45,189 bases of DNA from a virus, in IMG/VR virus record IMGVR_UViG_3300045988_017593, positions 1 to 45,189 of that record, one strand, 5' to 3'. Shown in pieces: positions 1,149 through 18,503 of the stretch; positions within the stretch are counted from its first letter, which is position 1; every line of letters starts with the position of its first letter. The notes under the pieces are model-generated. The model ran no database searches and had not been told where the DNA came from. It was given only the letters and a program-made list of their open reading frames with translations. Both the position numbers and the translations under genes were made by a program.

Positions 1149-3260
1149 ATGGCCGGAAAAAATAAAGTCCTTCAGGCCGTCGTGAGCTTCGCCGGCACCA
1201 TCGACCCCTCACTGGGGAAAGCGATGGAGGACGTCGCCGGACACCTCGAGAAGGTCAACTGGAAGGCCGTGGGCGTCGGTGCAGCGATGGGAGGCGTCGC
1301 CGTGGCGACCGGCAAGGCGGTCGTCGAGGCGGGCAAGTACCTCGCGGAGCTCGGCAACGACTTCAACACCACCATGAACGACCTCTCGGCCTCCACCGGC
1401 GCGACCGGCGCAGAGCTGGAGGCGCTGGGCGACGCTGTCAAGGGCGTCTACGCCAAAGGCCTCGGCGATGACTTCCAAGACGTCGCAGACGGTCTGGCGG
1501 CCACGAAAAAGGCCAGCGATCTGACCGGCGAGGCTCTGGAACAGGCAACCGCAGCCGGCTTCGTGCTGCGTGATACCTTCGACTACGACATCAGTGAGAG
1601 CGCCAGAGCAGCGTCGGCCCTGATGAAAAACTTCAACATCAGCGCCGAGGAAGCCTACGGCCTGATCGCGACCGGCGCACAGAATGGCGCCGACAAAAAC
1701 GGCGACCTGCTGGACACTCTCAATGAGTACAGCGGGCAATATGCCGCCCTCGGCCTAAGTGCCGACCAGTTTATGAGCTCCCTGATAGAAGGCGCCGACG
1801 CTGGCCTGTTCAGCATCGACAAGATCGGCGACGCTGTGAAGGAGTTCAACATCAGAGCCAAAGACGGAAGCGACAGCAGCCGCGAAGCCTTCGCGGGCCT
1901 CGGCCTGAACGCTGACGCCATGTTCGAGGCATTTGCCGCCGGCGGGGACACCGCAGAGGCGGCGTTTTTTGACACCGTGGAGGCGCTCAACGCACTCGAG
2001 GATCCCCTTCAGAGAAATCAGATCGGCGTCGCTCTGTTCGGCACGCAGTTCGAGGATCTGGAGGCCGGCGTGCTGCCGGTACTGGCGAACATCGAGACCG
2101 CAGCCTATGACGGCGCGGCAGCACTCGCACAGATCAACGACGTGAAGTACAACGACCTCGGCAGCGCCTTCGAGCAGATCAAGAGATCCGCAGAGGTGAC
2201 GCTGCTGCCGATGGCGTCCATGATCGCCAACACACTGACCGCACTGGCGCCGATCCTGACCGAGACCTTCGAGTCGATCACGCCGGTCATCACCGACACC
2301 CTCAACGAGTGTATGCCGTTCATTCAGGAGTTCCTACTGGGAATGGGCGACGCGCTGAAAGAGGTGCTCCCGCTGGTGGCAAAACTGGCGACGAGTCTCC
2401 TGCCGATCCTGACGCAGCTCATCAGCTCTCTGCTGCCACCGCTGCTGGATCTGGCGCAGCAACTACTCCCGCCCCTGATGGAGATCGTGCAGGCCATCCT
2501 ACCGCCCGTTGCGAGCATCCTCGCCACGATCCTGCCGATGCTGACGCAGATCATCTCGGCCGTCCTGCCGGTACTGACTCAGCTCATCACCAGCCTGCTG
2601 CCGGTCATCACGCCGCTGCTGGAGCTCGCGCTCCAACTGGTCAACGACGTGGTCATGCCGCTGCTGCCACCGCTGATGTCTATCGTCGAGGCCCTGCTGC
2701 CTCCCCTGATGGCTATCCTTCAGGCGCTCGTGCCGATCCTGACCCCGATCCTCAGCATCCTGCAACCCATCGCAGACGTCCTTGCCACGATCGTCGGCTG
2801 GATCTCCAAGGTGGTCGGATGGGTCGCTGACGGCCTCGGGTGGGTGGTCGGACTGTTCACCGGCGGCGGCTCGGCTCCCGAAGGCTACGCGACCGGCGGC
2901 TTCACAAGCGGCCCCTCTCTGGCCGGCGAGGATCCTCGCTACCCAACAGAGGCGGTCATTAGCTTCAACCCTGCATACCGCAGCGAAAACCTCGCCTACT
3001 GGGCGAGAGCCGGGCAGATGCTCGGCGCATCCAACGAGAGCGACTACGAGCTGCTGAGCGGCGGCTCCGGCACGTCCGTGGTCTACGACCTGAGCGGGCT
3101 GTCCTTCTCCCCGCAGATCAAGATCGAAGGTGACACCGACGAGGACGCCCTGATCCGCAAACTGCGCGAGCTGGAGCCGGAGTTTGTCGACTTCGTCCTC
3201 GAGGCTCTCAACAGAAGGGAGGGCGGCACCTATGTCACAGCAGACAGTCGGCTTTATTGA
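1149..3260 (+). CDS. Tail tape measure protein
   Basis: About 700 aa, Ala/Gly/Leu-rich, helical, at the canonical position after the chaperone. ATG 1149 preferred over GTG 1140 because AGGAGG lies at 1135-1140. Confidence 0.85.
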   Translation: MAGKNKVLQAVVSFAGTIDPSLGKAMEDVAGHLEKVNWKAVGVGAAMGGVAVATGKAVVEAGKYLAELGNDFNTTMNDLSASTGATGAELEALGDAVKGVYAKGLGDDFQDVADGLAATKKASDLTGEALEQATAAGFVLRDTFDYDISESARAASALMKNFNISAEEAYGLIATGAQNGADKNGDLLDTLNEYSGQYAALGLSADQFMSSLIEGADAGLFSIDKIGDAVKEFNIRAKDGSDSSREAFAGLGLNADAMFEAFAAGGDTAEAAFFDTVEALNALEDPLQRNQIGVALFGTQFEDLEAGVLPVLANIETAAYDGAAALAQINDVKYNDLGSAFEQIKRSAEVTLLPMASMIANTLTALAPILTETFESITPVITDTLNECMPFIQEFLLGMGDALKEVLPLVAKLATSLLPILTQLISSLLPPLLDLAQQLLPPLMEIVQAILPPVASILATILPMLTQIISAVLPVLTQLITSLLPVITPLLELALQLVNDVVMPLLPPLMSIVEALLPPLMAILQALVPILTPILSILQPIADVLATIVGWISKVVGWVADGLGWVVGLFTGGGSAPEGYATGGFTSGPSLAGEDPRYPTEAVISFNPAYRSENLAYWARAGQMLGASNESDYELLSGGSGTSVVYDLSGLSFSPQIKIEGDTDEDALIRKLRELEPEFVDFVLEALNRREGGTYVTADSRLY
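2394..2855 (+). repeat. 14 tandem in-frame 33-nt (11-aa) degenerate repeats inside the tape measure gene
   Basis: SLLPILTQLIS / SLLPPLLDLAQ / QLLPPLMEIVQ / AILPPVASILA / TILPMLTQIIS / AVLPVLTQLIT / SLLPVITPLLE ... IVGWISKVVGW / VADGLGWVVGL. Confidence 0.8.
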
Positions 3261-3456
3261 GTACACAGCACAGGGCGGCGACACGTTTGACAGCATCGCG
3301 CTCGCTGCGTACAACGAAGAACGAATGGCGAGCACGATCATCGCCGCCAACCCTGACCTCAGCGATGTCCTGATTTTTGAGGGCGGCGAGCTGGTGCAGA
3401 TCCCCATCGTGGAAGCTGTCACCACACCCGATACGCTGCCTCCGTGGAGGAGGTGA
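3232..3456 (+). CDS. LysM-domain tail protein (P2 gpX / PBSX XkdP-like)
   Basis: YTAQGGDTFDSIALAAYNEERMASTIIAANPDL...GELVQIP is a LysM-like motif. Follows the tape measure gene. Confidence 0.7.
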   Translation: MSQQTVGFIEYTAQGGDTFDSIALAAYNEERMASTIIAANPDLSDVLIFEGGELVQIPIVEAVTTPDTLPPWRR

Positions 3457-3461
3457 GCCCC

Positions 3462-4382
3462 GTGAAGATCCTATACGAAGGCGTCGACATCTACCCGGAG
3501 ATCAGCGTCCACCGCTGCTTCCACGATATGTACGCCGAGAAGCAGAGCGACGAGCTACTGCTGAAACTCAACGACACCCGGCAGCTATGGGACATCTGGA
3601 GCCCGAAGAAGGGAGACATCATAGCCGTCGAGGACGGGGCCGCCAAAACCGGCAAAATGTTCGTGGAGAGCGTCGTGCCCGAGTCCGGCATCGTGACCCT
3701 GCGGGCCTATTCCATGCCACAGTCCGCGAAAGACAAGCGGAGCAAGGCGTGGGAGAAGGTCAAGTTCCTGCAACTGGCGCAGGAGATCGCCGACCGGCAC
3801 GGCCTCACCCTCGAGACCTACGGCGTCACCGACCAGACCTACGACTACGTCGAGCAGAACAACCTCCCCGACTTCGCCTTCTTTCAAAACCGCTGCACCC
3901 TCGAGGGCGCGGCGTTTTTGGTCTATGACGGCAAGCTGGTGGTCTACGACGAGGCATACATGGAAGGACAGACGCCGGCCGACACCATCACCATCACGCC
4001 CGCCAGCAACTTCGAGTACAGAGACGAAGGCGCCAACGCCTACGGATCGGCCGAAGCAGTCAACGGGGGCCTGACCGGCAGCTTCTCGGCACCGGCAGGC
4101 GGCGACAAAAAGCTCCGCAAAGTCCTCCCGCTGCGCATGAGCGATCAGTCAGAGGCCGATCGCTTCGCCAAGGGGATCCTCCGGGACGCCAACAAAGGCG
4201 CCACGGTCGGCACTCTCTGGACGGGGGCGCTGCTGCGCGACTATGCAGCGGGCTCCGTCGTCACTCTGGCGACCGAGGGCGTGAAGTCGTGGGACGGCCC
4301 GGCCTTCATCAGCCGGATCCGGCACGACTACGTCAAGACGCGGAGCAAGCTGTACCTCCGCAAACCACTGGAGGGCTACTGA
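3462..4382 (+). CDS. Late control gpD-like tail/baseplate hub protein
   Basis: About 306 aa. Position and size match P2 gpD / XkdQ. GTG 3462 is preceded by GGAGGAGG. Confidence 0.6.
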   Translation: MKILYEGVDIYPEISVHRCFHDMYAEKQSDELLLKLNDTRQLWDIWSPKKGDIIAVEDGAAKTGKMFVESVVPESGIVTLRAYSMPQSAKDKRSKAWEKVKFLQLAQEIADRHGLTLETYGVTDQTYDYVEQNNLPDFAFFQNRCTLEGAAFLVYDGKLVVYDEAYMEGQTPADTITITPASNFEYRDEGANAYGSAEAVNGGLTGSFSAPAGGDKKLRKVLPLRMSDQSEADRFAKGILRDANKGATVGTLWTGALLRDYAAGSVVTLATEGVKSWDGPAFISRIRHDYVKTRSKLYLRKPLEGY

Positions 4383-4768
4383 TGAACAGCAACAATCAAA
4401 TGATCCAGAAGGGCACGATCTCCTCCGTGGAAGGAAAGACCGACCGAAACGGCGACAAGACCACCGCCAGAGTGCTGCCATGCACAGCTGACGGCATGGT
4501 CACGCGGCCGCTCACGATCCCGTGGTGGCTGCGAGGCAAGATGGGAAACCTGAAGCCCGACGACGAGGTCGCCTACGCCATGTTTGAGGACGGCACCGGC
4601 ATCATCCTCGCCCGCATGGACGGGGAATGGGACGGCACCGTCCCGGGTGACATCGAGGTCATCAAGGGCAGCGTCACCGTCACAGAGGGGGACGTGACTG
4701 CGACCGGCGTGAGCCTCAAGAGCCACACCCACACAGGCGTCCACGGCGAGACCAGTGGCCCGCACTAA
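4382..4768 (+). CDS. Baseplate assembly protein V-like spike
   Basis: 128 aa. Starts KGTISSVEG... and ends SHTHTGVHGETSGPH, typical of gpV-type spike proteins. ATG overlaps the upstream stop. Confidence 0.6.
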   Translation: MNSNNQMIQKGTISSVEGKTDRNGDKTTARVLPCTADGMVTRPLTIPWWLRGKMGNLKPDDEVAYAMFEDGTGIILARMDGEWDGTVPGDIEVIKGSVTVTEGDVTATGVSLKSHTHTGVHGETSGPH

Positions 4769-4780
4769 GGAGGCGAGCAC

Positions 4781-5332
4781 ATGGCCGTCATGGCATCGTG
4801 GGCCGGTAAGACGTGGGAGGTCTCCAGCCGAAAGGTCGCGGCGCTCAATGGCGTCTCGGCCACCGTCGAGCTCGACACCGAGAATACCGACGACAAGGCT
4901 GGCTCTCCTGCCACAAAGACCAAGGCCCTCAAACTTCAGACATTTAACTTCGACTTCGATCTCGCAACGGTCGCCGGCTGCGACCCTCGCAGCGAGTTCG
5001 ACTCGTGGACGGCTCTGGTGGGACAGTATGCGCCGTTCCATCTGGCCGGCAGGCGCTTCGGCCCTGCCAACCTTCAGCTCACCGCCGTCGCCCTGAGTGA
5101 CACAACGCTCGACGACTTCGGCAGGATCCTGAAGGGCAAGATCGCCATCACCCTCACCGAGTACGCAGAGGAGGCAAGCAGCAAGAAGGCAGGATCCGGC
5201 AGCGGATCCGGCAACTCTCCGGCGGGCGTCTCCGGCGGCACCGGCCCGAGGCTGAGCGCGGTCAACGTCGGGGCATCCAGCTCCGACAAAGCGGCGCACA
5301 AACCAAACAACACACAACTGACGGTCAAGTAA
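4781..5332 (+). CDS. Hypothetical baseplate-module protein
   Basis: High-GC3 ORF with an SD, located between the gpV-like and gpW-like genes. GSGSGSG low-complexity tail. Family not recognised. Confidence 0.5.
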   Translation: MAVMASWAGKTWEVSSRKVAALNGVSATVELDTENTDDKAGSPATKTKALKLQTFNFDFDLATVAGCDPRSEFDSWTALVGQYAPFHLAGRRFGPANLQLTAVALSDTTLDDFGRILKGKIAITLTEYAEEASSKKAGSGSGSGNSPAGVSGGTGPRLSAVNVGASSSDKAAHKPNNTQLTVK

Positions 5333-5346
5333 AGCGAGGTGATCCC

Positions 5347-5619
5347 ATGAAAGCAAGCGGCAACGGCAGGCCACAGACCTGCGTGCAAAATCTTCTCAAA
5401 ACCATCCGCGGCGAGGTGCCATACGAGCGCATCAAGGGGATCGACCGCACCCTGATCGACAAACCGAGCGAGCTGGCCGGCCCCGAGCTGGCTGCTGACG
5501 TGGAGTTCGTCGTGGAAACCTACGAGCCCCGCGTGAAGCTCGACAGCGCCGAGCTGGAGGCTCTGGCTGCCAAGGCTGGCAGCTTCGAGCTCGCAACCAG
5601 CATCGAGAACATCACATGA
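5347..5619 (+). CDS. Baseplate protein gpW/gp25-like
   Basis: 90 aa. LLKTIRGEVPYERIKGID... resembles the GPW/gp25 family. Located upstream of the J-like gene. Confidence 0.65.
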   Translation: MKASGNGRPQTCVQNLLKTIRGEVPYERIKGIDRTLIDKPSELAGPELAADVEFVVETYEPRVKLDSAELEALAAKAGSFELATSIENIT

Positions 5620-5633
5620 AGGAGGTGGAAACA

Positions 5634-7022
5634 ATGAGCGACGAGACCAACATCTACGGCGAGGACATCCATCTCACCGAGATCAACGCCTCCACCATCT
5701 ACAACACCATCATCACCATGCTGGAGAAGGGTGCCGGCGAGCCCCTCTATCCGGGCGACGAGCGCCGGATCTACGGCGAGGCCCTCGTGGCTGTGTTCGT
5801 GGCTCTATACAACACGCTCGACGACGTCGGCCGGCAGACCCTCCTCCGCTACGCAAGAGGCGAGGTGCTGGACGCCATCGGCGAGCGCCTCGACGTCAAG
5901 CGTCTGGAAGGCTCCAAGGCGGCCACGATCATGCGCTTCTCTGTGAGCACGCCGAGAGACAGCAACATCATCATCCCAAAATGGACAAAAGTGACGCCGG
6001 ACGGCGAAAACTACTTCGCCACCGACGAGATCGCTGTGCTTCAGGCGGGCAGCTACTCCGTGGAGATCCCAACCTCTGCCGTGAGCAACGGCGTGAAATA
6101 CAACGGGTACGCAGCCGGCACGATCACCACCCTCGTCGACCTGATCCCCTACATCGAAAGCGTCACCAACCTGACCGAGACAGCCGGAGGCGACGACGGC
6201 GAGCCATACACCAAGGACGGCGACGACCGACTCCGCGAGCGCATCCGACTGGCACCCGCCAAGAGATCCACGGCCGGCCCCGAGCTGGCCTATATCTACT
6301 GGGCCCTGACAGCGGACAGCTCCATCACCGACGTCAAGGCGGTCAGCGAGATCGAGGAGGTCGCCAAGACCGTCGCGGTCTATAACGATCACGCCTTCCT
6401 CGCCGGCCCGCTGGACGAGATGACGCTGGTGGTCAGGGCGAGCGAGAACGCCGAGCGGGCACTGCTGCTCACGGACTACACCTACACCTACGAGGACAAC
6501 CTGCTCACCATCGAGCTGATCGGCAACCTCGCGGGATCCGAAAGCATCTACATCGAGGTCGACAAAACCCTCGAGGGCTGCGTCAAGATAGTGCCGCTGC
6601 TGGAAGGCGGCCAGATCCCGGACGAGGCCATGCTGGAGAAGGTGCTGGAGGCAGTCAACGCCAAAGACATCAGGCCGCTCACCGACAAGGTCAGCGCAGT
6701 GGCTCCCGGCGTCGTAGAGTACGACATCGAGCTCGTCTACTACGCCACACCAGACACCGAGGCCGAAGTCATCGCTAATGTGGAAGGATCCGACGGCGCC
6801 ATCGTCCGCTATAACGAGTGGCAGACGGCGGCGCTCGGCCGAGACGTCAACCCCGACCAGCTCCGCAGGCTGATCCTCTCCCCGGCGTGGGCCGAAAACC
6901 TCAGCGGCGCGATCCGCGTCGACATGGTCAAGCCTGAGCACATGGCTGTCACCGACACGGAGGTCGCAAAGTTCAGCGGCAACCTGACAGTGAGCCATCA
7001 GAGAGTCACGGGGGTGGTGTAA
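5634..7022 (+). CDS. Baseplate J-like protein
   Basis: About 460 aa. Order W-J-I is conserved. ATG 5634 follows GAAGGAGG. Confidence 0.7.
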   Translation: MSDETNIYGEDIHLTEINASTIYNTIITMLEKGAGEPLYPGDERRIYGEALVAVFVALYNTLDDVGRQTLLRYARGEVLDAIGERLDVKRLEGSKAATIMRFSVSTPRDSNIIIPKWTKVTPDGENYFATDEIAVLQAGSYSVEIPTSAVSNGVKYNGYAAGTITTLVDLIPYIESVTNLTETAGGDDGEPYTKDGDDRLRERIRLAPAKRSTAGPELAYIYWALTADSSITDVKAVSEIEEVAKTVAVYNDHAFLAGPLDEMTLVVRASENAERALLLTDYTYTYEDNLLTIELIGNLAGSESIYIEVDKTLEGCVKIVPLLEGGQIPDEAMLEKVLEAVNAKDIRPLTDKVSAVAPGVVEYDIELVYYATPDTEAEVIANVEGSDGAIVRYNEWQTAALGRDVNPDQLRRLILSPAWAENLSGAIRVDMVKPEHMAVTDTEVAKFSGNLTVSHQRVTGVV

Positions 7023-7672
7023 TGAGGCTACACGAGGCTGAGATCCTGAAGCTGCTCCCCGCATGGATGCAGGAGGACGACGGCAACAAGGCGCTCGCAG
7101 CCGGCACGGATGAAACCACCAGAGCCATCACTGCACGCCTGAAGCTGCTCAGCAGATGGGACAAGATCGACCAGCTCAGCGAGGCAGAGCTCGACGAGAT
7201 GGCGTGGGAGCTCAATGTCCAGTGGTACGACAGCACCGCCAGCGTCGAAGCGAAGCGGGCCGTCATCCGCAACAGCGACCGCGTCTACTCCAAGCTCGGC
7301 ACCCGCTACGCGGTCGAGCAGATCGTGACCGACTACTTCGGCACCGGCGAGGTGCGCGAGTGGTATGAGTACGGCGGCAAGCCCCATCACTTCAAGGTGC
7401 TCAGCGACAACCCCGAGCTCGTCAACAACAACCTCGACCTGTTCCTGAAGCTGCTCGGCGTCGTAAAGCGCCGCAGCTCGTGGCTCGACGCGATCCTGAT
7501 CTGCCTGACCGGCGAAATGTATCTATTTTCCGGCATGGCCGTCAGGGATCACACCTACGAGGAGCACGTCATGGGCTGTGACGAGATCTATCTCTACCAC
7601 GCCACATTCGTCCACGATAACAACCGCGAGACCGTAACCATCGGCACCGGCGAGATCGTGGCGAGCGAATAA
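7022..7672 (+). CDS. Tail protein I-like (P2 gpI / XkdU-like)
   Basis: N-terminus LLPAWMQEDD...ELDEMAWELNVQWYD...AKR..I is typical of the gpI family. Confidence 0.7.
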   Translation: MRLHEAEILKLLPAWMQEDDGNKALAAGTDETTRAITARLKLLSRWDKIDQLSEAELDEMAWELNVQWYDSTASVEAKRAVIRNSDRVYSKLGTRYAVEQIVTDYFGTGEVREWYEYGGKPHHFKVLSDNPELVNNNLDLFLKLLGVVKRRSSWLDAILICLTGEMYLFSGMAVRDHTYEEHVMGCDEIYLYHATFVHDNNRETVTIGTGEIVASE

Positions 7673-7690
7673 CCAAGAAAGGAGACCCGC

Positions 7691-8440
7691 ATGGCTGCTT
7701 TTATCAACAACGACATCACAGTGGCCGGCCTGATCGTGCTCGCTAAGGGCGCGGCCGGCGAAAGGATCAACTACACCCGCATCGTCCTCGGTGACGGCTA
7801 CCTCGAGGAGGGCCAGACGCCCCGCTCCCTCACCGACGTGGTCAGCCCGAAGGCGTCCATCGACATCACGAAGCTGAAGGTCAACACCGACGGCACCGTG
7901 GCGGTCGGCGGTATTTTTACCAACGACCAGACGAGCGACGGCTTCTACTACCGCGAGCTGGGCCTGTATGCAGAGGATCCCGACCCAAACGTCGGCGAGA
8001 TCCTCTACTGCTACGGCAACTGCGGAGACCTCGCTGAGTGGATCCCACCCACCGGCGGCGCCACCATCGTCGAGAAAACCATCGACATCGTCACTGTGAT
8101 CGGAACGGCCACCAACGTGACCGCATACATCCCCGCGGACGCCTACGCCACCAAGGAGGACTACGAAAACTACAAGAGGATCGCCCTCGCTGCGCAGGAC
8201 ACAGCCAACAGAGCCATCGCCCTCGCCGAGCAGGCAGTCGCAATCGCTCAGGCAGCGCGTCAGGCCGTCACCGACCTGACCAAATCCGTGACGCAGAACA
8301 CCGGCAAGATCGCGACTCTGTGGGACGCTGTATTCAGCGACATCACGACCAACCCCTTCCAGATCACCTTCGTGGATCTGGATGGCATCACGCTGACCTC
8401 TGGCGTCTGGAACGCTTCGCTCCAGCGCCTCGAGTGCTAA
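7691..8440 (+). CDS. Tail fibre protein, N-terminal collar-type domain plus coiled coil
   Basis: ITVAGLIVLAKGAAGERINYTRIVLGDG...YRELGLYAEDPD...EILYCYGN resembles the P2 gpH N-terminal tail-collar domain. Only 249 aa, with no obvious receptor-binding domain. Confidence 0.7.
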   Translation: MAAFINNDITVAGLIVLAKGAAGERINYTRIVLGDGYLEEGQTPRSLTDVVSPKASIDITKLKVNTDGTVAVGGIFTNDQTSDGFYYRELGLYAEDPDPNVGEILYCYGNCGDLAEWIPPTGGATIVEKTIDIVTVIGTATNVTAYIPADAYATKEDYENYKRIALAAQDTANRAIALAEQAVAIAQAARQAVTDLTKSVTQNTGKIATLWDAVFSDITTNPFQITFVDLDGITLTSGVWNASLQRLEC

Positions 8441-8443
8441 GTC

Positions 8444-8698
8444 GTGAACGCCCACGGGTACATCCCGATCCCGCTGGCAGAAGCGTCCTGCATCATCGCG
8501 CACCTGTTTGTCGAGCTGGCCCAGCCCTGCTCCTGCTGCGAGCGGGGTGACGGCCTGATCGTTATTCAGGGCACCGCCTACGACGGCACCGGCGCGAGGA
8601 TCACCATCAAAGGCGAGGAGGTGAGATACTACGGCAAGCAACGGACACTCGAGGTCATACGAGCGGGCAAGTGTAGGCCGCCCGCCCTTCGGCCGTGA
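8444..8698 (+). CDS. Hypothetical small protein
   Basis: GTG-initiated 84-aa ORF with high GC3 but no clear SD. Confidence 0.35.
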   Translation: MNAHGYIPIPLAEASCIIAHLFVELAQPCSCCERGDGLIVIQGTAYDGTGARITIKGEEVRYYGKQRTLEVIRAGKCRPPALRP

Positions 8699-8711
8699 GA
8701 AGCTCCCGGAG

Positions 8712-9101
8712 ATGCAAGTCATCACGGACGCCAAGGATCTCGAGAAACACACCTACATCAAGACCCGCAACGCCAACATCTTCCCGAAGAAGGAGAGGCT
8801 CGGCCTCGCCCAAAGGATGATGAACGAAGCGAGCGATCTGGTCGCCGACCTCATGGAGGCCAACGATCTACTCCTCGCCGACCCGGAGGAGCGGGAGCTG
8901 CGTTTCCGGGCGCAGAGGTCAGCGCTGCGCAACTGCCGCAAGCTGATCCACCACATCGAGCTCGCGCACGAGATCCTCAGCGGGCTCGACGATGACGCCT
9001 TTGCCTACTGGGCGAGGATGGCGGCCGGCGTGAAAAACCAGACCGCCAAATGGTACAAATCAGACAGAGAAAGGGCTGCCAAGATGGTCGGCAAGACCTA
9101 A
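8712..9101 (+). CDS. avd: DGR accessory variability determinant (Avd, four-helix-bundle family)
   Basis: 129 aa, basic and helical. FPKKERLGLAQRMMNEASDLVADLMEAN matches the Avd-type FPK.E...L..Q..RA..S pattern. Lies immediately upstream of TR and RT. Confidence 0.8.
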   Translation: MQVITDAKDLEKHTYIKTRNANIFPKKERLGLAQRMMNEASDLVADLMEANDLLLADPEERELRFRAQRSALRNCRKLIHHIELAHEILSGLDDDAFAYWARMAAGVKNQTAKWYKSDRERAAKMVGKT

Positions 9102-9136
9102 AACCGCAGCCCCGTGGGGTACGCCTTGTTTTTTCG

Positions 9137-9231
9137 TGCCGGGTCGGCCAACAACGCCCGCAACGTCAACACCGATGGCACGCTGAACAGGAACAACGCC
9201 TACAACGGCAACAACGGCCTGCGCCCCGCTT
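9137..9231 (+). other. DGR template repeat (TR)
   Basis: 95 nt aligned by hand to 11211-11305 and, from 9153, to 21346-21424. In the VR reading frame it contains 10 AAC codons and 25 adenines. It ends in GC-rich GGCCTGCGCCCCGCTT. Confidence 0.9.
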
Positions 9232-9254
9232 CGATGGAGAGCTCGACTTATTAA

Positions 9255-9271
9255 CCGCCCGCGGAGGGCGG
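9255..9271 (+). other. Hairpin in the TR-RT spacer (CCGCCC-GCGGA-GGGCGG)
   Basis: Perfect 6-bp GC stem read directly. Confidence 0.5.
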
Positions 9272-9327
9272 CGAACACTATGCACCATCATCCAAGGAAG
9301 GCGTATCCCTCCCGCAGCCTGCGCCGT

Positions 9328-9344
9328 ATGACCGGCGCGGTCAT
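9328..9344 (+). other. Hairpin in the TR-RT spacer (ATGACC-GGCGC-GGTCAT)
   Basis: Perfect 6-bp stem read directly. Confidence 0.5.
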
Positions 9345-9425
9345 GGGTAAACACAGGACTGCTGATGCGGCCGGCGGCGCACGCAAAGCGTGGCCGGAGC
9401 TATCCACGGCAGGGAAAATTTAATC

Positions 9426-10601
9426 ATGGAGAACATCGTCAACAGCTTCACCGCGCTCTATGCCGCCTACAAAAAGACCCGCTGCGGCAAGCGCGACAAC
9501 CCCACGGCCATGCGTTTCCGCATGGAGGCCGTGGAACGCACAGACGACCTCGCCCGGAGGCTTCAGCGACGCGAGTACACCTTCGGCCCGTATTACCCCT
9601 TCAAGGTCTACGAGCCCAAGGAACGCCTCGTGCTCGCCATCGACTTCGAGGGGAAGGTCGTGCAGCACTCCCTATGCGACAACGTCCTCGAGCCTTGCTT
9701 CACCCGGCGCCTGATCCGGGACAACTACGCGGGGCAGATCGGCAAAGGCACCCACGATGGCCTTGACCGTCTCGCCAAAGCTATGCGCCACTACTTCTTC
9801 AGCAGGAAGGCGGCCGACGAAGCGGCCCGCAGGGCTGCCGGCCTGCCATACCGGCCGATGGAGGCGTGGGACTACGCCGACGGCTGGGTGCTCAAGGGAG
9901 ATTTTTCAAAGTTCTTTTACACCCTTCTCCATGCTGTGTGCTACGAGAAGGCGAAGAAGGCCCTCGCAGTCATCGAGGACGACGAGCTGCGCGACTTCGT
10001 CGAGTGGCTCCTGAGTCAGGTCATCGACAGCACGCCGGATCCTGGCATCCCGATCGGCAACCAGAGCAGCCAGCTCCTCGCTCTGCTCTACCTCGACGAC
10101 TTCGACCACTGGCTGCGGGATGACCTCGGCCTCGTCTATGGCAGATACATGGACGACTTCTACATCATCAGCAGCGACAAGCTGCTGCTCCGTCGGATCC
10201 TGAAGGAGATCGAGGAGTACATCAAACCGCTCGGCCTGCGGCTGAACAAAAAGACGCAGATCTTCCCACTGAAGAATGGCATCGACTTCCTCGGCTTCCA
10301 CACCTACCTCACGAGCACCGGCAAGGTGGTCAGGAAGGTGCGAGCCAAGAGTATCGACAACATGAAGCGAAAGATCCGCAAATACCGCGGGCTGGTGGAC
10401 TCCGGCAGGATGACGCTCGAGGGCGTCGTCCAGTCCTATGCGAGCTGGTGCGGCCACATATCACACGGCAACACCTACCACCTGTGGCAGAGCATGGACT
10501 CCTACTTCTTCGGCTACTTCCCGGAGCTGAAACCAAACCCGAAAGGAGACAACACACATGGCCCAAAAACTGAGCAACCTCGCAAACAAAGCGAAGGTTA
10601 A
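9426..10601 (+). CDS. DGR-type reverse transcriptase
   Basis: YMDDFYI catalytic motif and IGNQSSQLLALLYL (the DGR-specific [ILV]G..SQ motif). TR lies about 195 nt upstream. ATG 9426 (MENIVNSF) is preferred over the ORF-track start. Confidence 0.9.
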   Translation: MENIVNSFTALYAAYKKTRCGKRDNPTAMRFRMEAVERTDDLARRLQRREYTFGPYYPFKVYEPKERLVLAIDFEGKVVQHSLCDNVLEPCFTRRLIRDNYAGQIGKGTHDGLDRLAKAMRHYFFSRKAADEAARRAAGLPYRPMEAWDYADGWVLKGDFSKFFYTLLHAVCYEKAKKALAVIEDDELRDFVEWLLSQVIDSTPDPGIPIGNQSSQLLALLYLDDFDHWLRDDLGLVYGRYMDDFYIISSDKLLLRRILKEIEEYIKPLGLRLNKKTQIFPLKNGIDFLGFHTYLTSTGKVVRKVRAKSIDNMKRKIRKYRGLVDSGRMTLEGVVQSYASWCGHISHGNTYHLWQSMDSYFFGYFPELKPNPKGDNTHGPKTEQPRKQSEG

Positions 10602-12267
10602 GTTCGGCAGCCTTCACGGCAAGCCGATCATCTGGATCGTGGCAGACAAAAACCACGCCGGCTACCCCTCGGGCAGCGTCACCCTCGTGACCAATCAGAT
10701 CATCAAGATGCTCTGCTTCGATGCAAAGGAGAGCTCCAACGGAAACAGCGACCGCAAAAGCTACGGCAACAACCGCTACATCCACTCCAACATCCGGCAG
10801 TGGCTCAACAGCTCCGCAGCAGCAGGCGCGTGGTACACTGCGCAGCACTCCGCTGACGCACCTCCCTCCTCTGCGAACGTCTGGAGCAGCACCAACGCCT
10901 ACGACACGATCGCCGGCTTCCTGAACGCCTTCACCGCAAACGAGCGGGCCGCCCTTCTGGACACCACCATCACGGTCGGCAAGAGCTCCACAGATGGTGG
11001 CGGGACTGAGACCTGCACCGACAAGATCTTCCTCCTGTCCTGCACTGAGGTCAACCTCTCCGGCGACCACACCTGCGGCAGCAAGCTGGCGATCTTCAGC
11101 GACAACGCGAGCCGCGTCGCTACCGTGACCGCTGAGTGCGTCGCAAACTCCAACTACTCCAGCAACCCAGCCTCCGGGGCTGCGTGGTACTACTGGCTGC
11201 GCGACGCCTATGCCGGGTCGGCCAACATCGCCCGCGGCGTCTACACCGATGGCACGCTGCACTGGAACCGCGCCTACTACGGCTACTACGGCCTGCGCCC
11301 CGCTTGTAATCTGTCCTCTGATCTCCTGATCTCCGACTCCACCGACTCGGATGGCTGCTACACGGTCATCTACAATCAGGCCCCGACTGCGCCGGCTTCC
11401 ATCACCGTCCCGACTGAGGTGATCGGCGGCGAAAACCTGAGCATCTCGTGGGGCCAGAGCACCGACGCCGACGGCAACCTGAGCGGCTACACCCTCGAGC
11501 GCAAGTATGATAGCGGCACATGGACGCAGATCTACAAAGGCGCCGCCCGCAGCTACTCCGACCCCATCACCTACGGATGGACGAGCGTGCAGTACCGCGT
11601 CAAGGCATACGACACCGCAGGCGCCGAGTCCGCATACACGACCAGCGCGACCCGCAACGTCATCAACAACCGCGCACCCGTCATCAGCGGCAGCGACGGA
11701 GATCTCGGCAGCTACACCGCGGCGCCTCCCGCCTTCGACTATACCGTCACCGACGCCGACGGCCATCAGGTCACAGTCGTCGAGAAACTGGATGGCACGA
11801 AGATCAAGGAGTACACCGTAACGCTCGGCGAGGCCAACAGCTTCGCGATCAGTGCGGAGACGTGGCAGAAGATCCTCAACGGATCCCACACCATCACCAT
11901 CACCGCCACCGACGCGAAGAACGTGAGCGCCGTGAGGGCTATGACCTTCACCAAAGCGGTCAACGCCGTCGAGTTCGAGCAGACCCTCGCCATGGCCGCG
12001 GATGATATGCCGACCAAGGCGCTCGTCAACGTGCAGGGCCACTTCCCGACAGGCTGCACTCTGACGATCTGGATCTGCAACAACGGCAACGACGCAGCGC
12101 CCGCATGGGAGGACATCACCAACAAGGCCCTCAACGGGACGAAGCACTTCTTCACCAACACCGCCAAGACAGCCGATGCGTGGGGCGTGAAGATCAAGGT
12201 CAAGCTCCTGCGCGGATCTGCGACCGAGACCTGCTACATCCAGAGCGTCGGCGGTAACTTCGCATAA
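10558..12267 (+). CDS. DGR target protein 1: N-terminal C-type-lectin-fold variable domain, then FN3/Ig-like domains (probable receptor-binding tail fibre component)
   Basis: VR encodes residues about 218-250, ending in GLRPAC. Downstream, PTAPASITVP...LSISWGQSTDADGNLSGYTLERKYDSGTWTQIY...YRVKAYD is FN3-like. SD AAAGGAGACAACACACATG. The start overlaps the RT 3' end by 44 nt. Confidence 0.85.
   Translation: MAQKLSNLANKAKVKFGSLHGKPIIWIVADKNHAGYPSGSVTLVTNQIIKMLCFDAKESSNGNSDRKSYGNNRYIHSNIRQWLNSSAAAGAWYTAQHSADAPPSSANVWSSTNAYDTIAGFLNAFTANERAALLDTTITVGKSSTDGGGTETCTDKIFLLSCTEVNLSGDHTCGSKLAIFSDNASRVATVTAECVANSNYSSNPASGAAWYYWLRDAYAGSANIARGVYTDGTLHWNRAYYGYYGLRPACNLSSDLLISDSTDSDGCYTVIYNQAPTAPASITVPTEVIGGENLSISWGQSTDADGNLSGYTLERKYDSGTWTQIYKGAARSYSDPITYGWTSVQYRVKAYDTAGAESAYTTSATRNVINNRAPVISGSDGDLGSYTAAPPAFDYTVTDADGHQVTVVEKLDGTKIKEYTVTLGEANSFAISAETWQKILNGSHTITITATDAKNVSAVRAMTFTKAVNAVEFEQTLAMAADDMPTKALVNVQGHFPTGCTLTIWICNNGNDAAPAWEDITNKALNGTKHFFTNTAKTADAWGVKIKVKLLRGSATETCYIQSVGGNFA
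11211..11305 (+). repeat. DGR variable repeat 1 (VR1)
   Basis: 95-nt hand alignment to TR gives 11 mismatches, every one at a TR adenine (e.g. AAC to ATC, GGC, TAC, CAC, CGC; AGG to TGG). In frame with the target ORF. Confidence 0.9.
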
Positions 12268-12284
12268 ACGAAAGGAGGAGCACC

Positions 12285-12443
12285 GTGATCTACTTCAAAG
12301 AGCACAGCATCAAAGAGATCCACGAGAAGGAGCAGGCCGCTCAGGGCGGCGGCACTTCTGCCGAGGACAAGCAGCGCATCACCGACCTCGAGGAGGAGAT
12401 GACTGAGCTGACCAACGCCATCGAAAGGGGGCTGACGGAATGA
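12285..12443 (+). CDS. Small coiled-coil protein (52 aa), absent from the supplied ORF track
   Basis: GTG 12285 lies 6 nt after AAAGGAGGAG. Reads VIYFKEHSIKEIHEKEQAAQGGGTSAEDKQRITDLEEEMTELTNAIERGLTE*. The stop overlaps the next ATG (ATGA). Confidence 0.55.
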   Translation: MIYFKEHSIKEIHEKEQAAQGGGTSAEDKQRITDLEEEMTELTNAIERGLTE

Positions 12444-12913
12444 GCACCAAGTACAGCGGCCTCGAAGCCGCCATCCGCAGCGCTCGCATGAGCACTGTCA
12501 ACGAGATCACAGCCGGCGAGCGCACCGGCACCGACGTCATCGCCTGCGAGGAGCTTCTGCCCGCGTGGACGAAGGCGGGCCCCAAGGGAGACGGCAGCCA
12601 CGAAGTCGGCGAGCCCTGCACCCACGCCGGGCAGGCGTGGAGATGCTGTCAGGCTCACAACTGCAACAACAACCCCGACATCGAGCCCGGCAAAAACCCC
12701 GCACAGTGGGCCCCCTACCACACCAAGGATCCCAAAAAGGCCAAGCCCTTCATCCAGCCCACCGGCGCCCACGATACCTACCAGACCGGCGAGTGCTGCG
12801 TCTGGACTGACGGCAGCGTGAAGCGCTCCAAGGCGGACAACAACGCATACAGCCCGGCTGACTATGCGCAGGGATGGGAGGACGTGCCTGCCGAGGAAGG
12901 GGGCACCGTATGA
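12440..12913 (+). CDS. Hypothetical Cys/Trp-rich protein, possibly carbohydrate-binding
   Basis: AWTKAGPKGDGSHEVGEPCTHAGQAWRCCQAHN...NPAQWAPY and ...YQTGECCVWTDGSVKRSKADNNAYSPADYAQGWE loosely resemble CBM5/12-type repeats. Translationally coupled on both sides. Confidence 0.45.
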   Translation: MSTKYSGLEAAIRSARMSTVNEITAGERTGTDVIACEELLPAWTKAGPKGDGSHEVGEPCTHAGQAWRCCQAHNCNNNPDIEPGKNPAQWAPYHTKDPKKAKPFIQPTGAHDTYQTGECCVWTDGSVKRSKADNNAYSPADYAQGWEDVPAEEGGTV

Positions 12914-13275
12914 TCGAGATCAATATCACCGAGCTGGTGGTGCTGATGGGGATCCCTTCGGCGATCACCGGCTTCTGCTTCTGGCTGCTTGAGCGCAGGA
13001 TCCAGCGCCGCGAGAAAGAACGCGACCGCATCGATGAGGAGCGCCGCAAGAAGGCAGAGGCCAGAGAAAAAGCCCGCGAGGAGCTGGAGCTCATGATCGT
13101 GCAGAGCAACGGGGCGGCCATCGCCCTCTCCGAAGCCACGGCCAGAGCTGTGCAGCGCATCCCAGACGCCCACTGCAACGGGGAAATGCACGCGGCTCTC
13201 GACTATGCTGCCAAGGTCAAACACGCGCAGAAGGACTTCCTCACGCGGCAGGGGATCCAAGCGATCCTCGAGTGA
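12910..13275 (+). CDS. Membrane-anchored coiled-coil protein (lysis cassette; holin or antiholin candidate)
   Basis: N-terminal TM segment LVVLMGIPSAITGFCFWLL followed by a charged helix. Confidence 0.5.
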   Translation: MIEINITELVVLMGIPSAITGFCFWLLERRIQRREKERDRIDEERRKKAEAREKAREELELMIVQSNGAAIALSEATARAVQRIPDAHCNGEMHAALDYAAKVKHAQKDFLTRQGIQAILE

Positions 13276-13289
13276 CGGAGGTGGTCGGC

Positions 13290-13655
13290 ATGGCAGCGCA
13301 AACACACACCGACGCCGACCAGCAGGAATACATCGACCAGCTAATAGCTGAAAACAGAGAGCTCCGGCTTCAGATCCGACGCCTCAAGGCCCGGAACAAG
13401 AAAAAGAAGCCGGAGTTCTCCAAAATCATATTTACCGGGACGAGCATCGTGACCATCGCGGTCACGATCTTTTCCTGCTGGATGATCGTCACCACAATGG
13501 ACACGACCCCGCTCTGCTATCTGATCCCGGCGATCTTCGCCGAGATGGCGAGCGCGACGGCCTTCTACTACACGAAGGCGAAGGCCGAGAACAAGATCAA
13601 GCTCATGAAGGCCAACAAGGTGCAGCCAGAGGCCGGGAGCTTCGACGTCTACTAA
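13290..13655 (+). CDS. Putative holin (two TM segments)
   Basis: IIFTGTSIVTIAVTIFSCWMIV and LCYLIPAIFAEMASATAFYY, then a basic tail. Lies immediately upstream of the endolysin. Confidence 0.55.
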   Translation: MAAQTHTDADQQEYIDQLIAENRELRLQIRRLKARNKKKKPEFSKIIFTGTSIVTIAVTIFSCWMIVTTMDTTPLCYLIPAIFAEMASATAFYYTKAKAENKIKLMKANKVQPEAGSFDVY

Positions 13656-13668
13656 GGAGGCGTAACAC

Positions 13669-15153
13669 ATGGCACTACAAGGAAAAACCAACGAGGAGCG
13701 GATCTGGTACTTCCTCCGCTCCAAGGGGCTCAGCGACTACGGCGTGGCCGGTCTGATGGGTAATCTCTACGCAGAGAGCGCCCTGCGCCCCGAAAATCTT
13801 CAGAACACCTACGAGAAAAAGCTCGGCATGACTGACGCCGAGTACACCGCGGCCGTCGACTCCGGCGCCTATGCCGGCTTCGTCCGCGACTCCGCAGGCT
13901 ACGGTCTGGCGCAGTGGACATACTGGTCGCGCAAGGAGGGTCTGCTGGCCTTCGCGAAGGCTGCCGGCAAGTCCATCGGCGACCTCGAGATGCAGCTCGG
14001 CTTCCTCTGGAAAGAGCTGAGCGAGGGCTACAAGGGCGTCCTCAACGTCCTGAAGGCGGCCACCAGCGTCAGACAGGCATCCGACAAGGTGCTGACAGAC
14101 TTCGAGAGACCGGCCGACCAGAGCGAGACCGCCAAGGTGCGCCGGGCGTCCTACGGACAGAAATACCTCGACAAATACGCAGCGAAACCCTCGCAGAACG
14201 GAGGCACGACCATGAAATGCACCGCGCCCAACCTGATCGCCATCGCCGTCGCTGAGATCGGATACATGGAGAAGGAAACCAACGCGCAGCTCGACAACAA
14301 GACCGCCAACGCCGGCGACGAGGACTACACCAAATACTCCCGAGACCTGCGGGCTGCCGGCTACTACAACGGCAACAAGCAGGGCTTCGCGTGGTGCGAC
14401 GTTTTCGTCGACTGGTGTTTCTTCCAGCTCTGCGGAGGCGACGCCAAGAAGGCGCAGGAGGTCGAGTGTCAGACCGGCGACTGCGGCGCCGGCTGCAAGT
14501 TCTCGATGCAGTATTATCAGCAGGCCGGCCGTCTGTTTGACGACCCCGAGCCCGGCGATCAGATATTCTTCACCCGCAACGGATCCATCACCCACACAGG
14601 CATCGTGGAGACCGTGAGCAGCACCAAGATCACCACCATCGAGGGCAACACCAGCAACGTCGTCGCCCGCCGCACCTATAACCGCAGCGACCCCTACATC
14701 AAGGCATACGGCCGCCCGAGATATGACGGCAGCGCCGCGACCGTGAAGCCATCCACCGGCACGCCTGAGCCTGCTCAGCCTACCGGCGAGCAGGTCTACA
14801 CTGTCGTCAGAGGCGACACCCTGAGCGGGATCGCGGCCAAGTTCGGCACCACCTACCAGAAGCTCGCCACCTACAACGGCATCACCAACGTCAACATGAT
14901 CCGCGTGGGTCAGAAGATCAAGATCCCCGGCACTGCCGGCGGTGAGATCAAGGTCGGCGACGTGGTGCAGTTCGCCGGCGGGCCTCACTACACCAGCGCA
15001 AACGCCGCCACCGCCAAGACATCACCGAAGGCGGGCCCCGCCAAGGTGACGGCCATCAGCAAGAGCGGTAAGCACCCCTATCACATCATCCACACCACCA
15101 GCGCCTCCACCGTCTACGGATGGGTCGACGCTGACAAAATCACGAAGGTCTAA
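13669..15153 (+). CDS. Multidomain endolysin (lysozyme-like N-terminus, CHAP, LysM, SH3-like)
   Basis: GLMGNLYAESALRPENLQ...GYGLAQWT (phage lysozyme-like); GFAWCDVFVDW...ITHTGIVE (CHAP Cys/His); YTVVRGDTLSGIAAKFGTTYQKLATYNGI (LysM); C-terminal SH3-like segment. Confidence 0.85.
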   Translation: MALQGKTNEERIWYFLRSKGLSDYGVAGLMGNLYAESALRPENLQNTYEKKLGMTDAEYTAAVDSGAYAGFVRDSAGYGLAQWTYWSRKEGLLAFAKAAGKSIGDLEMQLGFLWKELSEGYKGVLNVLKAATSVRQASDKVLTDFERPADQSETAKVRRASYGQKYLDKYAAKPSQNGGTTMKCTAPNLIAIAVAEIGYMEKETNAQLDNKTANAGDEDYTKYSRDLRAAGYYNGNKQGFAWCDVFVDWCFFQLCGGDAKKAQEVECQTGDCGAGCKFSMQYYQQAGRLFDDPEPGDQIFFTRNGSITHTGIVETVSSTKITTIEGNTSNVVARRTYNRSDPYIKAYGRPRYDGSAATVKPSTGTPEPAQPTGEQVYTVVRGDTLSGIAAKFGTTYQKLATYNGITNVNMIRVGQKIKIPGTAGGEIKVGDVVQFAGGPHYTSANAATAKTSPKAGPAKVTAISKSGKHPYHIIHTTSASTVYGWVDADKITKV

Positions 15154-17444: not shown

Positions 17445-18503
17445 ATGAAAAAAGCAAAAACAGAGCCAAAATTCAAGCACATGAGCTTCACCGATCGCAT
17501 CCGACTGGAGGAGAAAATCAAGGCCGGCAAAACCAAGCAGCAGGCGGCCGACGAGCTCGGCTTCCACGTCAGCACCATCTACCGGGAGCTGAAGCGCGGC
17601 ACCTATGAGCACCTGAACAGTGACTACACCACCGAGATCAGGTACAGCCCGGACATCGCCGACGCCAACTACCGGCAAAACCTGAAGGCCAAGGGCGCCC
17701 CGATCAAGCTCGGGAACGACTACGCCCTCGCGGAATACATCGAGACGAAGATCGCCGACGAGAAGTACAGCCCCGGCGCCGTCCTCGGAGAGATCAAGCG
17801 CCTCGGCCTCGAGTTCTCTGTCACGATCAGCAAGCCGACCCTCTACCGCTACATCGAGCTCGGAGTGTTCGGCCGGATCACCAACGCAGACCTCCCGGAG
17901 AAGTCCAAGAAGAAGCAGACCAAGCGCAAGGTCAGAGTCTCCCGGCCGCCCGCGGGCGAGAGCATCGAAAACCGTCCGGCCGAAGTCGACGATCGCAACA
18001 CCTTCGGTCACTGGGAGATGGACACCGTCGTCAGTGCCGGCCACGCAAAAGAGACGCTGCTGGTGCTGACCGAGCGCCTCACCCGCCACGAGTTCATGAT
18101 CCTCATGCCAGATCGGACGGCGGCCAGCGTCGTGAAGGCACTCAACCGCATCGAGTGGAAGTTCGGCAAGCACTTCCCGGAGATCTTCAAGACCATCACC
18201 TGCGACAACGGCGTCGAGTTCTCTGACTGCTATGGTCTCGAGAAGAAGCGCCGCGGCAAAGGCAAGCGCACCAAGATCTACTACTGCCACCCTTACAGCT
18301 CCTACGAGCGAGGAAGCAACGAGAAACAAAACAGAATGATCCGGCGATGGCTGCCGAAGGGCACCAGCTTCGCCAGCGTCGACGCGAAGGAGGTCGCCCG
18401 GATCGAGGCGTGGCTCAACAACTACCCCCGCGAGATCTTCGGCTTCGAGACCTCTGCCGCTCTTTTTGAGCGGCATCTGGAGGTCATTTTAAGGGCTGCA
18501 TAA
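17445..18503 (+). CDS. IS30-family DDE transposase
   Basis: N-terminal HTH (AADELGFHVSTIYRELKRG) and a catalytic core with FGHWEMDTV..., TITCDNGVEF and YSSYERGSNEKQNRMIRRWLPKG, typical of IS30 transposases. GC3 usage is like the rest of the phage. Confidence 0.85.
   Translation: MKKAKTEPKFKHMSFTDRIRLEEKIKAGKTKQQAADELGFHVSTIYRELKRGTYEHLNSDYTTEIRYSPDIADANYRQNLKAKGAPIKLGNDYALAEYIETKIADEKYSPGAVLGEIKRLGLEFSVTISKPTLYRYIELGVFGRITNADLPEKSKKKQTKRKVRVSRPPAGESIENRPAEVDDRNTFGHWEMDTVVSAGHAKETLLVLTERLTRHEFMILMPDRTAASVVKALNRIEWKFGKHFPEIFKTITCDNGVEFSDCYGLEKKRRGKGKRTKIYYCHPYSSYERGSNEKQNRMIRRWLPKGTSFASVDAKEVARIEAWLNNYPREIFGFETSAALFERHLEVILRAA

Follow-up and report, generated by a model that had tools for sequence, protein, structure and literature searches.

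A probably active diversity-generating retroelement with two targets in an nd4-like gut myovirus

The 45,189-nt viral sequence analysed here (IMG/VR record IMGVR_UViG_3300045988_017593, positions 1 to 45,189; the whole stretch is referred to below as the window) carries a diversity-generating retroelement (DGR) in which one template repeat (TR) is matched by two variable repeats (VRs). The locus is very probably an active DGR of a temperate-type gut myovirus of about 45 kb that belongs to the nd4-like group. It appears as a clean, intact phage DGR that rewrites two different proteins from a single template, and comparative evidence indicates that both targets are still diversified in human-gut populations. 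All coordinates are those of the window. The principal features are as follows.

9137 to 9231, + strand: TR, 95 nt, with 25 adenines and, read in the VR frame, 10 AAC codons; non-coding, between avd and the reverse transcriptase (RT) gene
11211 to 11305, + strand: VR1, 95 nt, inside target 1, encoding amino acids (aa) 219 to 249
21348 to 21424, + strand: VR2, 77 nt, matching TR positions 9155 to 9231, with 21 TR adenines
8712 to 9101, + strand: avd (accessory variability determinant), 129 aa, product predicted to be helical; phrog_3206
9426 to 10601, + strand: DGR reverse transcriptase, 391 aa from the ATG at 9426; the open frame starts with a GTG at 9390
10558 to 12267, + strand: target 1, the tentaclin, 569 aa; N-terminal DUF6273 domain with VR1, then Ig/FN3-like domains
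20923 to 21618, + strand: target 2, a small DUF6273 protein, 231 aa; ATG at 20923, ribosome-binding site AAAGGAG

The name tentaclin was given to target1 of phage nd4, a 569-aa protein with an N-terminal DUF6273/C-type-lectin domain that holds the VR and with three Ig-like domains (PMC10743442).

A repeat search over positions 8000 to 14000 returned the TR and VR1 as the single strong direct repeat of that region, ungapped and with 88% identity. The similarity ends abruptly at both edges of the 95 nt. Base-by-base comparison shows 11 mismatches, and 11/11 fall on TR adenines (9154, 9162, 9163, 9168, 9186, 9189, 9195, 9196, 9204, 9210 and 9213). The probability that all 11 would fall on adenines by chance is 5.7e-8 (hypergeometric; 25 adenines in 95 nt). 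The original prediction, made from the letters of the sequence, had placed the two repeats at these coordinates and had counted 11 adenine-only mismatches. The repeat search and the direct comparison agree with it on both points, and careful alignment gave zero mismatches at non-adenine positions. Its figure of roughly 10^14 peptides, computed from 25 adenines and 10 AAC codons, is matched by an enumeration of all A-to-N changes of the TR in the VR frame, which yields 1.1e15 DNA variants and 4.4e14 peptide variants. The same enumeration reaches a stop codon from none of the TR codons, so that what had been said of AAC holds for every codon of the template.

The whole window was also scanned for matches to the TR at its non-adenine positions, and this revealed a third copy near 21330, about 10 kb downstream of the cassette. 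This copy, VR2, differs from the TR at 16 positions, of which 16/16 are TR adenines (P = 1.5e-12); its similarity to the TR breaks down upstream of TR position 9155. Earlier, the DGR had been described within positions 8712 to 12267, which contain its core parts; the second target lies outside them. VR1 lies within the open reading frame (ORF) at 10558-12267 and VR2 within the ORF at 20923-21618, and the TR is a separate copy near the RT gene. RT, Avd and TR are intact, as are the reading frames of both VRs.

Related loci were collected with the 3' part of the TR, its adenines replaced by N, as the search pattern. At least 119 loci were found in IMG/VR and 40 in bacterial genome assemblies. 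The last 32 nt of the repeats are constrained by this pattern, and the upstream 63 nt are free. Among the relatives, 38 instances of the TR comprise 9 distinct sequences, 44 instances of VR1 comprise 42, and all 51 instances of VR2 are distinct. The entropy of VR1 is 1.54 bits at TR-adenine positions and 0.11 elsewhere, and for VR1 and VR2 taken together the values are 1.4-1.5 bits versus about 0.1. In 27 cognate pairs of TR and VR1 there are 399 mismatches at adenines and 20 at other bases. About 40% of the TR-adenine positions in the VRs are still A; G and T are frequent, and C is rare, most of all at the second A of AAC. A like substitution bias at TR-adenine positions was reported by Baykov et al. 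2023 (PMC10743442).

Two contigs are nearly identical to the window. Contig L118 has an identical TR and a cassette that is 99% identical; its tentaclin gene (1.7 kb) differs from that of the window at 16 positions, of which 14 are in VR1, all 14 at TR-adenine positions. Contig L107 is 99.2% identical to the window over 5969 nt around target 2, and 16 of its 47 differences lie in VR2, again all 16 at TR-adenine positions. Because such contigs differ mainly in their VRs, diversification is placed within the last ~1% of lineage divergence. Non-adenine polymorphisms of the TR (GGGTC/GGCTC and ACGCTG/ACTCTG) recur in each lineage's own VRs, which fits repeated copying from TR to VR. Judged from these comparisons, both VRs have been diversified recently in nature and adenine-specifically, with an almost invariant TR.

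These data bear on two explanations that dispense with a working retroelement. One is ordinary paralogy: the TR would be a piece of a DUF6273 gene that recombination or gene conversion has kept similar to the targets, and reverse transcription would play no part. This is exceedingly improbable: both targets do have a DUF6273 domain and a common peptide and DNA block beside the repeat, but gene conversion does not confine differences to the adenines of one copy (11/11 and 16/16 in the window, 399 versus 20 in relatives), the TR is nearly invariant where both VRs are hypervariable, and a DGR-clade RT gene and an avd gene flank the TR.

The other explanation concerns timing, and one contig is relevant to it. 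In L013 (IMGVR_UViG_3300018494_001016) the TR has changed at four positions, the equivalents of 9173, 9176, 9190 and 9191 in the window, and a change of AGG to AAC among them creates an eleventh AAC codon. The VR1 of the same contig still fits the older TR and thus shows three non-adenine mismatches. The TR itself therefore evolves, and this VR1 has not been overwritten since. Homing is accordingly not continuous, and this speaks for a fossil DGR, in which the TR/VR pattern would record past activity and the targets of the window genome would no longer be diversified. Such a reading also draws on the fact that activity in the window genome is deduced from sequence comparison and not from direct measurement. 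It is nevertheless very unlikely, given that RT, Avd, TR and both VR frames have no lesions and that, in contigs with 99% identity to the window, the differences are almost confined to the VRs, and there to TR-adenine positions.

A further contig, L074 (IMGVR_UViG_3300014955_000038), holds three copies of the TR family within 6 kb (1920-8051). They are a TR, a normal tentaclin-type VR with 14 adenine mismatches and 1 other, and a further tentaclin-type copy that differs from the TR at 9 adenines and 8 other bases. This last copy may be a decaying or duplicated target.

The gene order is fibre, small ORF, avd, TR, RT, target 1, and the parts from avd to target 1 are contiguous. The claim that the DGR is complete is upheld by the presence, side by side, of an avd gene assigned to phrog_3206, a non-coding TR, a DGR-clade RT gene and a VR inside an ORF. 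The order avd-TR-RT-target had been pointed out as unlike that in BPP-1, a phage of Bordetella, which is true, but it is not new, as the same order has been published for nd4 (PMC10743442). Likewise, the cassette does separate a fibre gene from a gene described as that of a putative receptor-binding protein; the latter gene encodes the tentaclin, with an internal VR.

The RT matches Pfam RVT_1 (1e-13) and phrog_1423 (5e-117). Its closest solved relative is 8ub7_A, the RT of BPP-1 (bRT), with E = 2.5e-35; group II intron RTs follow at 1.6e-11. The motifs IGNQSSQ and YMDD, to which the original prediction had drawn attention, are both present in the translation of the ORF at 9390-10601 and align with IGSLTSQ and YMDD of bRT. 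By its I/LGxxxSQ motif and its catalytic YxDD, the protein is assigned to the DGR clade of RTs. Translation likely starts at the ATG at 9426, which is kept in an alignment of relatives.

The product of avd matches phrog_3206 (Avd protein of DGR) over residues 1-127 with E = 1.8e-26 in the PHROGs database. Its match to the NCBIfam model DivGenRetAVD is weak and below the cut-off (17.8 bits versus 80), and searches of Pfam and of PDB sequences gave no match. An AlphaFold2 (AF2) model calculated from the single sequence has helices at 26-54, 61-89 and 94-127 and a mean confidence score (pLDDT) of 66. A Foldseek search of the PDB with this model returned generic helical bundles only (E > 0.2) and nothing specific.

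The tentaclin of the window is 78% identical to nd4_tgt1 at the amino acid level, without gaps. Its N-terminal part matches Pfam DUF6273 (1e-40, aa 40-253), and VR1 (aa 219-249 of 569) lies at the C-terminal edge of this domain and hence well inside the protein. The matches to Ig/FN3-like domains are weak (Big_13, 0.0089 in Pfam; FN3con, 0.027 in a profile search). The last 100 aa closely resemble those of nd4_tgt1, and the seven-residue consensus of the C-terminal anchoring Ig-like domain is probably present, judging by the alignment. A PHROG whose label reads Hoc-like head decoration, phrog_10993, matches the protein over its entire length (2.4e-246). Homologues of the tentaclin fall into at least 7718 clusters at the 90% identity level, and single clusters among these (P0035 and P0070) hold 16,518 and 17,914 distinct members. 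The huge size of these clusters probably reflects hypervariability of the VR across public metagenomes. On the genome, the tentaclin gene directly follows those for baseplate and tail fibre and precedes those for lysis.

Sequence and profile searches of the PDB found just one solved structure similar to the tentaclin's DUF6273 region (aa 13-303; 10558-11427). This is 9qa6_A, the N-terminal DUF6273 domain of an M64 IgA protease from a gut bacterium (E = 1.6e-11 by sequence, 2.3e-15 by profile). Published work on ThomasA, an enzyme of the same domain architecture, assigns its DUF6273 domain no function. The idea that the tentaclin binds IgA, by analogy with the DUF6273 domain of ThomasA, was considered and rejected, as this domain is reported to have no significant effect on catalysis. 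An AF2 model of aa 1-290 had a pLDDT of 36.7 and was unusable (its alignment contained 22 sequences with at least 71% identity). A C-type-lectin fold has been reported for nd4_tgt1 and nd4_tgt2 (PMC10743442) and for the targets of Toutatisvirus (bioRxiv 10.1101/2024.10.15.618418).

The start of target 2 was chosen from its ribosome-binding site and from comparison with nd4_tgt2. The protein matches Pfam DUF6273 (2.3e-8) and phrog_9958 (2.1e-63). Its VR, like that of target 1, is at the C-terminal end of DUF6273, and the two target proteins are alike only around the VR. The ~55-aa tail that follows VR2 (aa 178-231) is acidic, helical-looking and well conserved among relatives, with the consensus …GGTFATxDQL…FMLGTLRAxRExEAxHE; as a module, this tail may serve in attachment or oligomerisation.

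The gene of target 2 lies outside the structural module. Its stop codon overlaps the start of a gene for a DnaQ/RNase T-type exonuclease (21611-22321) by 8 nt (ATGAGTAA), and the genes for Gam and Erf follow the exonuclease gene. Target 2 is translationally coupled to this exonuclease gene, within a recombination and replication module. The exonuclease gene comes directly after target 2 in 68/69 related loci, and the genes upstream of target 2 vary. No evident signal peptide was found in target 2. An alignment search of IMG/VR for distant relatives of target 2 returned only nd4-like loci with at least 62% amino acid identity, so the conservation of this context refers to this phage group. The setting weakens, without excluding, the published guess that the protein is an Mtd-like receptor-binding protein. 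That target 2 is instead an early-expressed, non-virion lectin-like binder with a hypervariable surface, rather than a receptor-binding protein of the tail, strikes us as rather improbable. The ligand would then possibly be a variable host factor, for example a defence or surface component, and the phage would have a single DGR that diversifies an adhesin of the virion and, simultaneously, a non-structural protein.

A broader alternative accepts the DGR and assigns its targets other roles. The tentaclin would be anchored to the capsid as a Hoc-like decoration and would bind ligands of mucus, epithelium or the immune system in place of the bacterial receptor, and target 2 would be an early binder outside the virion. 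We regard this combination as a real possibility of the lesser kind. It accords with the full-length match of the tentaclin to phrog_10993, and with the N-terminal placement of the variable domain and the C-terminal placement of the Ig-like domains, the reverse of the usual tail fibre. The overlap of target 2 with the exonuclease gene beside Gam and Erf, kept in nearly all relatives, and its apparent lack of a signal peptide fit as well, and the hypotheses of Baykov et al. 2023 include non-bacterial ligands (PMC10743442). Against these stand the position of the tentaclin gene, between baseplate and fibre genes on one side and lysis genes on the other, which is usual for host-recognition proteins, and the nature of the PHROG label, which is an annotation and not a tested function.

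Returning to the DGR as such, comparisons within the window and among relatives delimit candidates for its cis-acting elements, including the initiation of mutagenic homing (IMH) sites.

11290 to 11338, + strand: candidate IMH of VR1; the adenine-free, GC-rich GGCCTGCGCCCCGCTT, also present in the TR, followed by a 33-nt block that the TR lacks
21409 to 21457, + strand: candidate IMH of VR2; the same GC-rich segment and the conserved 33-nt block
9116 to 9127, + strand: 5' arm of the bracketing helix, GGGGTACGCCTT; just upstream of the TR, predicted to form a long-range RNA helix of 12 bp
9232 to 9425, + strand: TR-RT spacer, 194 nt, non-coding; presumed 3' part of the DGR RNA
9298 to 9309, + strand: predicted 3' arm of the bracketing helix, in the spacer
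9255 to 9271, + strand: predicted hairpin of the spacer
9311 to 9347 and 9359 to 9412, + strand: predicted helices of the spacer

The adenine-free, GC-rich 16-mer is identical in TR, VR1 and VR2 and ends the repeat. The 33 nt that follow VR1 match those that follow VR2 at 26/33 positions, in genes that are otherwise dissimilar, and match the flank of the TR at 9/33 and 8/33 positions. Divergence of the TR and VR flanks after an identical 16-mer fits a case described by Wu et al. 2018, in which identical IMH and IMH* can be distinguished further downstream (PMC5758913). The 33-nt block is a reasonable candidate for the portion of the IMH by which recipients are marked. A common peptide, ACxLxSDLLIS, is encoded by it as well, and protein constraint could explain its conservation; the block varies at some synonymous sites among relatives. 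The 5' boundary of the repeat differs between the targets (95 nt for VR1, 77 nt for VR2), and a variable 5' limit is known in systems where the end of homology sets it (Wu et al. 2018, PMC5758913).

The DNA of the 91 nt from each VR end folds no more stably than shuffled sequences (z from -0.45 to +0.67 in the window and nd4). An imperfect 17-nt inverted repeat follows VR2 (21444-21460 and 21468-21484, 76% complementary); its fold is likewise no better than that of shuffles. GC-rich inverted repeats downstream of the IMH are present in BPP-1 and Legionella. With a frequency of just 34% among DGRs (Wu et al. 2018, PMC5758913), they do not strictly define these elements.

Structure of the DGR RNA was predicted with RNAalifold from 12 and from 33 relatives. 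The bracketing helix (9116-9127 with 9298-9309), which encloses the TR, was predicted in both sets. It is 100% paired in 33 distinct sequences and includes one compensatory pair (U-A in 18 sequences, C-G in 15). For the predicted structure, 97.9% of cells are paired in the 33 relatives, versus ~40% when partners are slid, and compensatory changes occur at four base pairs, one of which is that in the bracketing helix. These observations are no more than suggestive of a conserved RNA structure; the sequences are closely related, most pairs are invariant, and the power of the alignment is low. When the single sequence of 9090-9430 was folded, it was no more stable than shuffles (z = 0.19), so support for the structure comes from the comparative analysis only. 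No match was found in an Rfam scan of 8000-12500 with E values up to 1, and a scan of 8300-10700 for promoters and terminators found nothing on the + strand. Identity to nd4 is 97.9% in the TR, 85.6% in the spacer and 82-86% in the neighbouring genes, so that the TR is the most conserved segment.

In the BPP-1 paradigm, RT and Avd reverse-transcribe the TR RNA and misincorporate opposite adenines, and the cDNA replaces the VR (PMC5758913). By analogy, a non-coding RNA in the window would be transcribed across the gap between avd and the TR, the 95-nt TR and the 194-nt spacer. RT (9426-10601) and Avd (8712-9101) would copy the TR part into cDNA, misincorporating opposite template adenines. The cDNA would then replace the homologous stretch in two genes, at VR1 in the adjacent tentaclin gene and at VR2 in the gene of the 231-aa protein about 10 kb away. 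Transfer would be limited on the 3' side by the adenine-free, GC-rich GGCCTGCGCCCCGCTT, and the block common to the VRs and absent from the TR would probably mark the VRs as recipients; on the 5' side the limit would be the end of homology, 95 nt for VR1 and 77 nt for VR2. The outcome would be a beta-hairpin, on the surface of a lectin-like domain, in up to ~4e14 variants. Such variants would presumably retune ligand binding of adhesins that the virion would display.

Several points weigh against this scheme as a whole. Resemblance between IMH and IMH* is limited to the common GC-rich segment, and no significant inverted repeat, hairpin or cruciform was found downstream of either VR. The identification of Avd depends on one PHROG profile, with the NCBIfam score below the cut-off and an uninformative fold search. 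Activity is deduced from differences between assemblies. The lectin fold of the target domain is adopted from the literature on orthologues. Finally, target 2 lies among early and recombination genes and not among tail genes, which weakens the assumption that it acts as a receptor-binding protein of the virion.

The closest known system is that of phage nd4. In a megablast search of GenBank phages, the cassette matched Phage nd4 (OR777945) and one unannotated human-gut contig, with 83.4% identity over 97% of the query. The DGR of nd4 and its two targets were described by Baykov et al. 2023 (Int J Mol Sci 24:17324, PMC10743442). These authors defined a class of tentaclins, with one to four Ig/FN3-like domains after the lectin domain, and reported target2 of nd4 as a small DUF6273-only protein of ~232 aa, 25 adenines in the TR and 21 in a shorter VR2, and VR variation over 54 related genomes (PMC10743442). 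The window shares with nd4 the order fibre, avd, TR, RT, tentaclin and the myovirus genome plan. Its TR is 97.9% identical and also has 25 adenines, VR1 is near the 5' part of a gene for a 569-aa protein with DUF6273 and Ig-like domains, and a shorter VR2 with 21 adenines lies in a gene for a DUF6273-only protein. The window differs from nd4 in being of another lineage (~83% DNA identity over the cassette, 78% amino acid identity in the tentaclin), and its TR differs at two non-adenine positions, both mirrored in the VRs of the window.

With the prototype BPP-1 (mtd-avd-TR-brt) the window has in common an RT homologous to bRT, an Avd-type accessory protein, a non-coding, AAC-rich TR, adenine-specific mutagenesis and an adenine-free, GC-rich repeat end. 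In contrast to BPP-1, the window has its target downstream of RT and a second target as well, and its VRs are internal, whereas the VR of BPP-1 forms the very C-terminus. Past the GC-rich segment of the window, neither an IMH*-like imperfect repeat nor a significant downstream inverted repeat is present. The window target has DUF6273 and Ig-like domains in place of the Mtd architecture, and the hosts are Gram-positive gut anaerobes.

One TR and two DUF6273 targets are also found in the Faecalibacterium prophages Lelie and CP11 (PMC11792537) and in Toutatisvirus. In each, a large, Hoc-like target stands beside the RT gene and a small DUF6273 protein is targeted at another place in the phage genome; DUF6273 holds the VR at its C-terminal end. 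These are other phage lineages with low sequence similarity to the window, and the second target of Toutatisvirus lies 17.5 kb upstream of the TR, versus ~10 kb downstream in the window (bioRxiv 10.1101/2024.10.15.618418). Wu et al. 2018 catalogued 48 cassette architectures and noted that internal VRs are rare but known and that non-adjacent targets occur in the same prophage (PMC5758913). The gene order, the internal VR and the non-adjacent target are thus all within catalogued DGR variation.

The two-target system has already been published for nd4 in 2023 and for similar phages since, and the window is another member. The locus leaves existing knowledge unchanged in that the system, its targets and its repertoire were all described for nd4. 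The nd4 paper contains no analysis of cis elements, spacer RNA or the genomic position of target2 (PMC10743442). What is added here is modest: a candidate block marking recipients, the helix that brackets the TR, and the conserved placement of target 2 before an exonuclease gene. These points could guide experiments on the recognition of internal or distant VRs and on the role of target 2, and the locus would be a good experimental model if a lysogen were used.

Host evidence was taken from isolate genomes only. The TR family is present in long contigs of Butyricicoccus pullicaecorum DSM 23266, Flavonifractor sp. AGMB03687, Oscillospiraceae bacterium 44-34 and Lachnoclostridium sp. An14, and it also occurs in metagenome-assembled genomes (MAGs) of Oscillospiraceae and Clostridiales. 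The hosts are Oscillospiraceae and related Clostridia. Baykov et al. 2023 reported one nd4-like prophage only, in Flavonifractor plautii (PMC10743442). The isolates that carry prophages slightly widen the experimental options and make the phage family experimentally approachable. Twelve further loci (L123, L124, L129, L132, L134-L136, L153, L154, L157, L158 and L161) are in MAGs labelled Collinsella, Alistipes, Lentisphaeraceae and others. As the isolates with the prophage are Clostridia, these labels do not fit, and the phage contigs have likely been mis-binned. Collinsella and Alistipes were rejected as hosts, since the contigs in question are short members of metagenomic bins and probably mis-binned.

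Beyond the DGR, the window makes up the complete, small genome of a myovirus. Its structural and lysis genes include those for tape measure, baseplate J and I, tail fibre, endolysin, terminase, portal, protease, major capsid and sheath proteins; a transposase-like protein, an exonuclease, Gam, Erf, a DnaC-like loader and a methyltransferase are also encoded. The transposase-like ORF (17445-18503, 352 aa) matches phrog_4646, labelled transposase (3.6e-136), has an N-terminal DNA-binding region and lies between the lysis and early genes, where an integrase would be expected. The Mu Gam-like gene is at 23164-23943. Between positions 12500 and 13250 the window has 112 differences in 750 nt (~15%) from L013 and L118, contigs that are otherwise ~99% identical to it. 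This segment covers the ORFs at 12440-12913 (weak match to CBM_5_12) and 12874-13275 (phrog_9428). It looks like a recombination mosaic beside the lysis genes, unrelated to the TR.

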